Shown here: positions 10,887 through 22,486 of the stretch, one piece after another | Position numbering within the stretch: the first letter of the stretch is position 1 | Layout: the number at the start of each line of letters is the position of its first letter | Made by a program: the position numbers and the translations under genes | The notes under the pieces: generated by a model | What the model was told of the DNA's origin: nothing | What the model saw: only the letters and a program-made list of their open reading frames with translations | Database searches by the model: none | From: Escherichia coli | GTDB lineage: Bacteria > Pseudomonadota > Gammaproteobacteria > Enterobacterales > Enterobacteriaceae | Reading direction: 5' to 3' (one strand) | DNA length: 64,000 nt | Assembly: GCF_003334355.1 (NCBI RefSeq) | Contig: NZ_QOWP01000015.1

Positions 10887-11255
10887 GACCGGGACTCCCA
10901 ATGCTTAAAATATCGGACAGTTCGGTGGGCACACAGAAACAAATTGGGTTTCAGACCATTAAACAGCCTGACTCAGCGCGACGGGAAAAATTGAGGTCGC
11001 TGACAACCGCTAAGGCTATCAGCAAAAAGGGATAGCCTTAGGAGTTGATCCTGGATGACAGGATAGTGAGCCAGTATCTACTGGGTGTGTCCAAGGCGAA
11101 TGTCCTCTTAGAGTGATCGTGCGCGCATGTTACGCCAGCAAAATTTTGCCGTCAACACGCAACAGAACACCACAGAACAATAGTTGAACTTCGCGCTTTT
11201 TGGTACTCGTCAAGGTCGCTAACAGGATAAAAAAATCCCACATCCAGGACCTATA

Positions 11256-18611: not shown

Positions 18612-21158
18612 TCACGAAAAATATTGCTGTAATAGCGGCGTATCGTGATCCTGATTGGCAGGCGGCATGTTACCGATAGATTTTGTGCGGAACGGAATCA
18701 CCTGTTCACGACCATCAACCTTCACAATCTGATAGAACTGCGGCAGGTTGAAGTTGATGAAGCTTGAGCCGTAGGTAAAACGGTCATGCGATGACGAGTA
18801 GAAGCGACTGACGTCACGTACCAGCTCCTCTTTGCTGCCTTCGCAGTGGTGATATACCTCAACCCGGTTGCTTTCGTCGAGAATGTAGATATTAAAGCCA
18901 TTCTCGTCTTGCGTTTCTTCGAAAAAGAACTGGATGATCCCTTCGCTGGCAAAGCCGTCCACCACCGCCGGTAATTTGACGTGATTGGTTTCAACCTGCA
19001 CTGACAGGCCGTGCAGTTTGTTATGCGAAATCGCGCCATAAAACTCGATGGCGTTTTCCAGTTTCTGTACCGATACATTCAGGCGTTCGAAGAACAACCC
19101 CCAGGTTTGACCAGAAACGCGCAGCGCCTTGAAACGCCCGGTTTCCTGGCGGGTGCTGGAAAGACGCAATTCAATACACTCAGAAACCAGTTGCTGCACG
19201 CGAGTACGAATTAAGCCGCGCAGATGCTGGCTATAACAGAAGACTTCCACGCTATCTGGCGGTGCGGCGTCCTGATGCATTTTGCCGAGAATAGTTTTCA
19301 GGGCTTCGATCATCGATTGCTCGCCGTTGAAGTGCAGCGTACGCACTTCGTTCCACGAGTTGCGGTACAGCAGGTCAACGCTACCTACCAGGCAATTTTG
19401 ATTCTCGCCAAAGCTGAAGACATCCAGCTTACGGAAATCGAAATGCACCACCTGATTGCGGAACGCCGCTGTCGGGTCATATTCCAGGTTAACGATAATC
19501 GCCAGATGGCGGATCTCACACGGGCTGTAGAGCGCCTTCGGTGTCGGTGCAGGTAAGCGCAGCGGGAAATGGTGCGACACGTCGGCGACCATCTCCTGCA
19601 ACTTAGGCAAATCGACAATGCCGTTACCTTTAATATACAAACGGGTGCGCGAGGTCAGCAGGCCGTTAAACCATGCCCACGCCACCAGTTTATTCAGGTA
19701 ACGGTTATATTCCAGCGGCTGATGGCTGATGATCGACTCAATATTTGGCGCGCGGTTATACAGATACCAACCTGAACGGTTAGCCCGGCCCGGCGGCACA
19801 TAAATAAAGGTCAGATTCGGTTCCGAGAGATCGGGTGAAATCTGCGGGTTTACCAGCGTCACTTTACCTGGTAATGCTTCAAACGCGGCATACAGCTTAC
19901 GCGTCAGCACGCCGATATCCTGCGGACTGGCGGAGACGCTAAGGTTATTGCGACGCGCAAAGCGGATCAGATTACGGTAGCTCTGCATCATCGCGTCGAG
20001 CAACTCGTTGTGCGCCTCACGCACCTGATCAATCTTCCAGTTAGCGCGGTTATCGAGCATTGCCAGACGAGCTTCGTCCCAACCCCACTCGCTCACTAAC
20101 TGGCTCAACACTGCGCGACGCCAGCCTACGCAGGCGCGTTCACGGCTGAGCTTTTCGCACACTTTTAAATAGAAGCAGCGACGTACTAAATCCAGACGGG
20201 TAAAATCTTCAATCGCCGTCAGGTATTCAGTAACACGCTCCAGCATCATGCAGTATGGATCGAGACCAAACGATACAATCTCGCCGTCGTGCAAACGCTG
20301 TTTGATATCTTTCGCCAGCAGACGTGGGTTCGGGTATTCCCAGGAATAGGCTTCCAGCAGCAGTGTTTTCAGTACCGCTTTGTATGGGGAATCGATACTC
20401 TTGTAGAGCTGCCAAAGGCTGGCACCAAAGTACTCTTCAGCAGAAAGCGAGCTTAAGCCACCGAGATCCAGCCATTCATTTGGCGTCAGCACGCCCTGCG
20501 CGTAAAGCGTCATCACATAGTCGTCGTAATGCTCTTCTTCGTCGCACGGCACCATATTCCACAGAATACGCTTACCGGCGAGACGCACGGCGGTACGATA
20601 AAATTCGTCAAGCAGCAGTATATGCTGGGTGGAGCCACAATCTTCGCCCCCCAGGCTGCCGCTTTCATTATGACGGAAGCGGTTTTCATCAATCAGGAAG
20701 AAGCTGACTTCCACACCCAGCGAGGCGGCCCAGTTTTCCAGCAGGCTACATTTACGTTGTAGCAATTGGCGCTCTTCGCTATCGAGCCAGGATTGATGAC
20801 AGACCCAGATATCCAGGTCAGAGGAACAACTTTGCCCTACGGACGAGGTGCTGCCCATGGTGTATACACCAGTAATTGGAAGCTCACCTTTCGGCGGATC
20901 CTGTACTGACATTCCACGATACAGTTCAAGCTCGTTCAGGTAGTGGCGTTGAGTTTCATCAGGCGTGTAAAGGCAAATGCCTTTGGGAACGTTACCATCA
21001 AGGTAACCCGGCATTAGCGGATGGTGATAGTGCAACAATGTCGGCAGTAGACTGTAGACCTGTTGGAATGCAGGCCCCATAGCAGCAAGCGCGCGATCCA
21101 CACGCAATTGATTTATGGCATCCAGTCTCTGTTTCAGAGTCTCAATATAGAGGTACAA
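18612..21158 (-). CDS. cyaA: class I adenylate cyclase
   Basis: 848-aa ORF; initiation codon at 21156-21158 is TTG on the coding strand. Confidence 0.9.
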
Positions 21159-21544
21159 GACGTATCGCCTGATTTGCTACCCGTCATGACTGTGATTCCG
21201 CCAACATCAACGGTAACACGCGGCATTCGGGATATTTCGTATGTCAAAGGTAACCGTTACCACTTTTCGCGCCTGGTTTTTTTAGTTTCACGACGAAAAA
21301 ATGGTCTAAAACGTGATCAATTTAACACCTTGCTGATTGACCGTAAAGAAAGATGCGCTACATACAAGTGTAGCACCGTTTATTCTCTGTAAATTCCTTA
21401 TTACAACGGCGTGAAACGCCTGTCAGGATCCACTGCCAGACCTCATTTTACGGTTTGCGCAGGCGTCTACGTTTCACCACAACACTGACATCACTCTGGC
21501 AAGGATGTTAGGATGGACCACGGATGATAATGACGGTAACAAGC
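21159..21544. promoter_or_regulatory. divergent cyaA / hemC promoter region
   Basis: About 385-bp non-coding gap between divergently oriented cyaA and hemC; promoter positions not resolved here. Confidence 0.4.
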
Positions 21545-22486
21545 ATGTTAGACAATGTTTTAAGAATTGCCACACGCCAAAGCCCACTTGCACTCTGGCA
21601 GGCACACTATGTCAAAGACAAGTTGATGGCGAGCCATCCGGGCCTGGTCGTTGAACTGGTACCGATGGTGACGCGCGGCGATGTGATTCTTGATACGCCG
21701 CTGGCGAAAGTAGGCGGAAAAGGCTTATTTGTAAAAGAGCTGGAAGTCGCGCTCCTCGAAAATCGCGCCGATATCGCCGTACACTCAATGAAAGATGTGC
21801 CGGTTGAATTCCCGCAAGGTCTGGGACTGGTCACTATTTGTGAGCGTGAAGATCCTCGCGATGCCTTTGTGTCCAATAACTATGACAGTCTGGATGCGTT
21901 ACCGGCAGGCAGTATCGTCGGGACGTCCAGTTTACGTCGCCAGTGCCAACTGGCTGAACGCCGCCCGGATCTGATTATCCGCTCCCTGCGCGGCAACGTC
22001 GGCACTCGCCTGAGCAAACTAGATAACGGCGAATACGATGCCATCATTCTTGCCGTAGCCGGACTAAAACGTTTAGGTCTGGAGTCCCGCATTCGCGCCG
22101 CGTTGCCACCCGAGATTTCTCTTCCGGCGGTAGGGCAAGGTGCGGTGGGTATTGAATGCCGCCTTGATGATGCACGCACTCGCGAGCTGCTTGCCGCGCT
22201 GAATCACCACGAAACTGCACTGCGCGTTACCGCAGAACGCGCCATGAATACCCGTCTCGAAGGCGGATGTCAGGTGCCAATTGGTAGCTACGCCGAGCTT
22301 ATTGATGGTGAAATCTGGCTGCGTGCGCTGGTCGGCGCGCCGGACGGTTCGCAGATTATTCGCGGTGAACGCCGCGGTGCGCCGCAAAATGCCGAACAAA
22401 TGGGGATTTCGCTGGCAGAAGAGCTACTGAATAACGGCGCGCGCGAGATCCTCGCTGAAGTCTATAACGGAGACGCCCCGGCATGA
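21545..22486 (+). CDS. hemC: porphobilinogen deaminase (hydroxymethylbilane synthase)
   Basis: 313 aa from [20 protein letters not shown]; in-frame ATG 21 nt upstream is an alternative start. Confidence 0.9.

Follow-up and report, generated by a model that had tools for sequence, protein, structure and literature searches.

The TTG start of cyaA in Escherichia coli: a conserved weak initiation codon, very probably in use and keeping translation of adenylate cyclase low

Adenylate cyclase sets the level of cAMP and, in this way, controls catabolite repression. In the stretch of Escherichia coli DNA considered here (64,000 nucleotides; 'the window'), the reading frame for this enzyme, cyaA, opens with TTG. 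The locus thus raises two questions: is this TTG really the codon at which translation begins, and, if it is, why has so weak a codon been kept? A first, sequence-only reading of the window had proposed answers to both. It held that the 848-codon frame has no in-frame ATG at its 5' end, that inefficient initiation is a known way of limiting adenylate cyclase levels, and that the TTG is a conserved regulatory feature rather than an error. Below, we take up the identity of the gene, the anatomy of its start, the conservation of the codon within E. coli and between species, and finally what the codon might be for. The features to which we refer are collected in Table 1.

Table 1. Positions of features at and around the cyaA start (window numbering)
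Feature	Position	Strand	Basis or remarks
cyaA CDS, class I adenylate cyclase	18612-21158	-	848 codons plus stop; ORF list, translation, NCBIfam profile, RefSeq
TTG (UUG) start codon of cyaA	21156-21158	-	Direct reading; conserved 61-mer; homologous TTG in relatives
First in-frame ATG (codon 27), rejected as an alternative start	21078-21080	-	Direct reading
Shine-Dalgarno-like AGGCGAU, -12 to -6	21164-21170	-	AGG and GAU, split by a one-base mismatch, base-pair with the 3' end of the 16S rRNA
In-frame TAG stop, 7 codons 5' of the TTG	21177-21179	-	Shuts the frame to any upstream start
Upstream ORF, 17 codons, ATG at 21185-21183	21132-21185	-	Out of frame with cyaA; overlaps the TTG
CRP-like site TGTTAAATTGATCACG at the main cya promoter, whose likely -10 (TAAATT) it overlaps	21312-21327	-	TGTGA-N6-TCACA, 2 mismatches

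That the gene encodes adenylate cyclase, as first proposed, is borne out by its protein profile and by its surroundings. In a profile search, the cyaA protein scores 2048.3 bits against NCBIfam NF006977, the class I adenylate cyclase equivalog (cut-off, 1761), and the alignment is full-length: residues 1-848 of the protein lie on positions 1-848 of the 848 in the profile. Because this alignment runs from residue 1, the N-terminus of the curated family is the position of the TTG. RefSeq annotates cyaA with the same coordinates, and the same start, as the reading frame found here. According to the RefSeq features, whose coordinates match, cyaA lies between cyaY, downstream, and the divergent hemCDXY operon, upstream, in the synteny hemC-cyaA-cyaY. 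(For hemC, on the plus strand, the longest ORF runs from an ATG at 21524 and encodes 320 aa, versus 313 aa from the RefSeq start at 21545.) Every one of the 5426 complete E. coli genomes contains a match, at 93.8-100% identity, to a 581-bp query spanning the cyaA start; each match, among those listed, falls under a feature named 'cyaA: class I adenylate cyclase'. The window is collinear with the genome of E. coli strain 720632; over 50 kb, just 29 positions distinguish the two. In a few E. coli genomes the cyaA 5' region is duplicated (5429 places in 5426 genomes), one of the copies being plasmid-borne.

The anatomy of the start is simple. On the coding strand, the codon GGG is followed by the stop codon, TAG, then by the six codons CAA ATC AGG CGA TAC GTC, then by the TTG, and then by TAC CTC TAT ATT GAG. 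Direct reading and the ORF list both give TTG as the first codon, where it had originally been placed, and the six codons that separate the TAG from the TTG include no ATG, GTG or TTG. Because of the TAG, no in-frame ATG can be reached upstream without an intervening stop. Inside the gene, codons of the start type next occur in frame at codon 18 (TTG), codon 20 (GTG) and codon 27 (ATG); this last is the first ATG of the frame, and so the 5' end of the 848-codon frame is devoid of ATG, as claimed. Of the 45 genes annotated within the window's first 50 kb, 38 start with ATG, 5 with GTG and 2 (cyaA and ysgD) with TTG. The second of these two, ysgD (11038-11094, minus strand), is an annotated small-protein gene of 18 codons.

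Within E. coli, the start is nearly invariant. The exact 61-mer centred on the T of the TTG is present in 5419 of the 5426 complete genomes, and the TTG is therefore no sequencing error, in agreement with the sequence-only reading. The remaining 7 genomes differ somewhere within the 61-mer; the one of these that was inspected has a change at -25, and retains the TTG. The most divergent E. coli record (93.8% identity over 581 bp) also has the TTG, and its upstream 30 nt are identical. When the TTG alone was replaced by ATG or by GTG, the resulting 61-mers perfectly matched none of the 5426 complete E. coli genomes.

For comparisons between species, one genome per species (GTDB collection) was surveyed for the invariant motif LLL(D/E)EFYR(T/S), which lies about 180 codons into cyaA, by means of a degenerate pattern at the DNA level, and the N-termini were projected onto E. 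coli codon 1. This yielded at least 120 loci, about 105 of them with enough upstream sequence. In the pattern, Arg had to be encoded by CGN and Thr/Ser by NCN, so that it matched particular codon families only; because of this, and because the set of species is arbitrary, the start-codon counts given below are a sample rather than a census.

Is the TTG the real start? In E. coli and 19 other Enterobacterales (among the matches listed), codons 2-26 vary at 23 of their 25 third positions, as against 7 of the first positions and 2 of the second. Third-position variation of this kind is a coding signature, and it reaches as far as the TTG. The peptide comprising residues 1-26 is identical in 15 of these 20 Enterobacterales, again among the matches listed, and the N-terminus can be aligned as far afield as the Vibrionaceae and Pasteurellaceae. 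Upstream of about -16, indels and unrelated sequence take the place of alignment in the 20 Enterobacterales listed. Among the same matches, the TTG is the sole in-frame codon of the start type after the upstream stop in 11 of the 19 other Enterobacterales. A cyaA entry was sought in the TRAINSPOTTER N-terminomics supplements, and none was found there. The alternative is that initiation occurs at the ATG of codon 27, the TTG being no more than the point to which the ORF mechanically runs in the 5' direction. In its favor, ATG opens more genes than any other codon (38 of the 45 annotated ones considered above), and ORF calling invariably reaches back to the first codon of the start type. The alternative is exceedingly improbable, however, and we reject it: residues 1-26 are conserved, and vary almost entirely at third positions; the N-terminus aligns to that of Vibrionaceae and Pasteurellaceae, and the family HMM begins at position 1; the GCGCTTGCTGCT upstream of codon 27 has nothing like an SD sequence; and mutation of the UUG is reported, in the account given in PMC5499595, to alter expression.

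Taking TTG as the start, we can ask how widely it is shared. Among the matches listed, TTG occupies the homologous codon in 18 of the 19 other Enterobacterales. The exception is a metagenome-assembled genome (MAG), Enterobacteriaceae bran_bin.7, in which TTT takes the place of TTG; the upstream ATCAGGCGATACGTC is conserved, the frame of 852 codons is intact, and no alternative in-frame start was found near the TTT. The TTT is probably an assembly or consensus error; otherwise, it is a natural loss of the start codon. The reduced endosymbiont Ca. Pantoea edessiphila has a degenerate N-terminus and was not counted among the 19. All 11 of the Vibrionaceae listed have TTG at the homologous codon, with the canonical AAGGA ahead of it in place of AGGCGA. 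Psychromonas, among the matches listed, also has TTG at the homologous position of its cyclase. Neither ATG nor GTG is the start in any of the Enterobacterales and Vibrionaceae sampled, as far as the listed matches go.

Outside these groups, the picture is mixed. The five Pasteurellaceae among the matches listed have TTG (2), GTG (2) and ATG (1). Two Marinobacter genomes (L086 and L109) encode cyclases with long N-termini whose only candidate start is a TTG behind GGAG or GGAGG; a third (L078) is less clear, its sole candidate start being a TTG further upstream. Among the matches listed, the class I cyclases of Orbaceae start with ATG, as do those of all three Shewanellaceae, and those of Pseudomonas, Stutzerimonas and their relatives start with an ATG about 15 codons further upstream, and hence have a longer N-terminus. 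Non-ATG starts in class I cyclases thus reach beyond the Enterobacterales and Vibrionaceae, possibly through several independent changes. Comparison of orthologs upholds the claim that the TTG is a conserved feature, and narrows it: conservation is clade-specific, since Pseudomonadales and Shewanellaceae use ATG. Given the ATG of these two groups and of Orbaceae, a weak start is not intrinsic to the enzyme family.

Is it the codon that is conserved, or merely the DNA around it? As a neutral gauge, we used four-fold degenerate sites at which all of the species compared share the first two bases. Among the matches listed, 2 of 37 such sites are invariant in the 20 Enterobacterales, none of 11 in the Vibrionaceae and none of 10 in the two groups combined, and between E. 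coli and Vibrionaceae 55-85% of comparable four-fold sites differ. The first base of the start codon, on the other hand, is T in 31 of 31 species of Enterobacterales and Vibrionaceae among these matches. Because T is fixed even though A or G in its place would still initiate, and because the four-fold sites are near saturation, the weak codon itself is under purifying selection. The SD and flanking sequences of the Vibrionaceae are different (AAGGA), which indicates that the conserved unit is the codon and not the surrounding DNA element.

The earlier reading had suggested looking for an SD sequence 5-12 nt upstream of the TTG, and one is found, AGGCGAU. Its duplex with 16S rRNA has a predicted energy of -5.9 kcal/mol, which is the median for the same set of 45 annotated genes that was used above to compare start codons. 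Within this SD region, GGCGA is invariant in the 20 Enterobacterales, and of the 15 nt that precede the TTG, whose consensus is AYCAGGCGANAYGTC, 9 do not vary (both among the matches listed). A weak SD as the limiting element was considered, and was rejected on this median strength. No sequestering RNA structure was detected when the 216-nt 5' UTR, taken from the estimated transcription start, was folded together with the first codons (-51.8 versus -50.2 +/- 4.1 kcal/mol for shuffled sequences; z = -0.38). Because the SD, an interrupted AGG.GAU, is average in predicted strength and the structure of the 5' UTR is not significant, the weak element is the start codon, and neither the SD nor RNA structure.

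Might something else upstream control the start as well? In Escherichia, the short upstream ORF of Table 1 could also govern initiation at the TTG. Its ATG lies 29 nt 5' of the TTG, with GGCGGA ahead of it at a spacing of 9 nt; the ORF crosses the ribosome-binding region of cyaA; and its ATGACGGGTAGC motif is common to E. albertii and Salmonella, and is present as a close variant, ATGACGGATGC, in Citrobacter. We consider such control very unlikely. The ATG and the TTG are 29 nt apart in E. coli and Citrobacter but 30 nt apart in E. albertii and Salmonella, so that no consistent reading frame is kept; the Salmonella ATG has no SD before it; and the segment is missing from most of the Enterobacterales listed, which nevertheless keep the TTG. 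Somewhat more generally, the AYCAGGCGANAYGTC block or the upstream ATG, which is specific to Escherichia and Salmonella, might provide an additional layer of translational control, as a site for a trans-acting RNA or protein, or as an occluding ORF. In Vibrio cholerae, cyaA mRNA is reportedly repressed by Qrr small RNAs (PMC9732341), and this sets a precedent in a relative for extra control of cyaA; for E. coli, we would give the idea only a slender chance.

Several other features of this region caught our attention. In E. albertii and Salmonella, the upstream ATG shares the frame of cyaA and no stop intervenes, allowing a possible extension of 10 aa. The 5' UTR of Escherichia includes a segment of about 60 nt (about 21177-21235, minus strand) that is missing from most of the sampled Enterobacterales. 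Some other genera have unrelated sequence of similar length in its place; in species without the segment, the conserved promoter block is correspondingly nearer to the TTG. Inside this Escherichia-specific segment is a CRP-like match, TGTGATTCCGCCAACA (21191-21206, plus strand; 2 mismatches), of a kind expected at chance level. Further upstream is the CRP-like site at the likely -10 of the main cya promoter, reportedly the CRP-repressed P2 (Aiba/Mori 1985). The core of this site, GTGTTA(A/G)ATTGATCACGTTT, is invariant in 19 of the 20 Enterobacterales among the matches listed, with one substitution in Pantoea stewartii. A scan of the window with the CRP consensus gave 16 matches versus about 26 expected, which is chance level, and so cross-species conservation is all that supports this site. 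It is transcriptional context, and lies outside the start-codon feature. Just 5' of the promoter block, a terminator-like hairpin, GTGCTACACTTGTATGTAGCGC then ATCTTTCTTT (21355-21376, minus strand), is kept in several genera of Enterobacteriaceae.

We return to the TTG and to what its weakness accomplishes. For the control region of cyaA, the source cited in PMC5499595 is Roy et al. 1983. According to the same article, Reddy, Peterkofsky and McKenney (1985) found that adenylate cyclase was synthesized from UUG, GUG and AUG, in the cyaA context, in the ratio 1:2:6. This reported ratio sustains the proposal that inefficient initiation limits adenylate cyclase. The UUG start itself is described as present in many Enterobacterales and in other gammaproteobacteria (PMC5499595, NAR 2017). 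The mechanism with the best support is as follows. UUG is mismatched to the initiator fMet-tRNA at the first base of the codon, and 30S initiation complexes consequently form on it less efficiently than on AUG. This sets a low rate of translation for the cyclase, whose product, cAMP, is a global regulator. Selection holds the first base at T; a change from T to A would give about 6-fold, and from T to G about 2-fold, more enzyme. The selective reason, we infer, is the avoidance of excess cyclase and cAMP. Taking all of this together, we are close to certain that the TTG is the true initiation codon of cyaA, and that it keeps translation low: its anatomy, annotation and conservation are observed, and its effect on expression comes from the literature.

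The codon might do more than limit. Compared with AUG, UUG makes initiation depend more on the condition of the initiation machinery, and this dependence allows polyamines, through the same codon, to stimulate synthesis of Cya. Polyamines raise UUG-dependent binding of fMet-tRNA for cya, which belongs to the polyamine modulon (PMC7177335); translation of cya being reportedly responsive to polyamines, the UUG would be more than a passive limiter. A stronger version, complementary to the one we prefer, is that UUG has been kept mainly as a sensor (of polyamines, IF2/IF3 and ppGpp) that couples cAMP to nutritional state. Enhancement of fMet-tRNA binding extends to UUG and GUG members of the modulon, cya among them (PMC7177335), and PMC5499595 connects the conservation of UUG in cyaA and spoT to the finding that, of the non-AUG classes, UUG mRNAs respond least to cold, to nutritional state and to ppGpp. 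GTG, moreover, is missing from the sampled Enterobacterales and Vibrionaceae, though the gain in expression it would bring is only about 2-fold. Sensing and limiting are not separable from sequence, however, and the mixture of TTG, GTG and ATG in Pasteurellaceae suggests that in some lineages the exact codon is only loosely constrained. We regard a mainly sensory role as possible, and rather unlikely. Limitation of enzyme dose is the reading that we favor.

How does this start compare with what is known? The UUG start of cyaA was already known in E. coli, in which it was discovered, and has been tested experimentally since the 1980s; it is a textbook case of a weak initiation codon that tunes the dose of a regulatory enzyme. 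The gene, codon and context here are those of E. coli K-12 cyaA (Roy 1983; Reddy 1985, both as cited in PMC5499595), without substantive difference. Our survey adds only clade-level detail, and the TTG opens no new question. The addition is small and quantitative: the first base has been kept across Enterobacterales and Vibrionaceae even though synonymous divergence is close to saturation, and Pseudomonas and Shewanella have ATG. Class 2 of the polyamine modulon (cra, cya, frr, gshA and spoT, plus uvrY; PMC7177335) is characterized by an inefficient UUG or GUG start combined with a normally placed SD. The cyaA of the window, with its UUG and its SD-like element at -12 to -6, fits this form; stimulation by polyamines is itself taken from PMC7177335. 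The class I cyclases of Pseudomonas and Shewanella belong to the same family, and have an N-terminal catalytic region in common with E. coli CyaA, yet unlike E. coli cyaA they start at ATG. A further parallel is infC, the gene for IF3, which is subject to feedback, IF3 discriminating against its own AUU start; we know of no loop like this for cyaA. The AUU of infC and the UUG of cyaA are both conserved, non-canonical starts that set or regulate the level of a dosage-sensitive protein, and the two appear side by side in PMC5499595.
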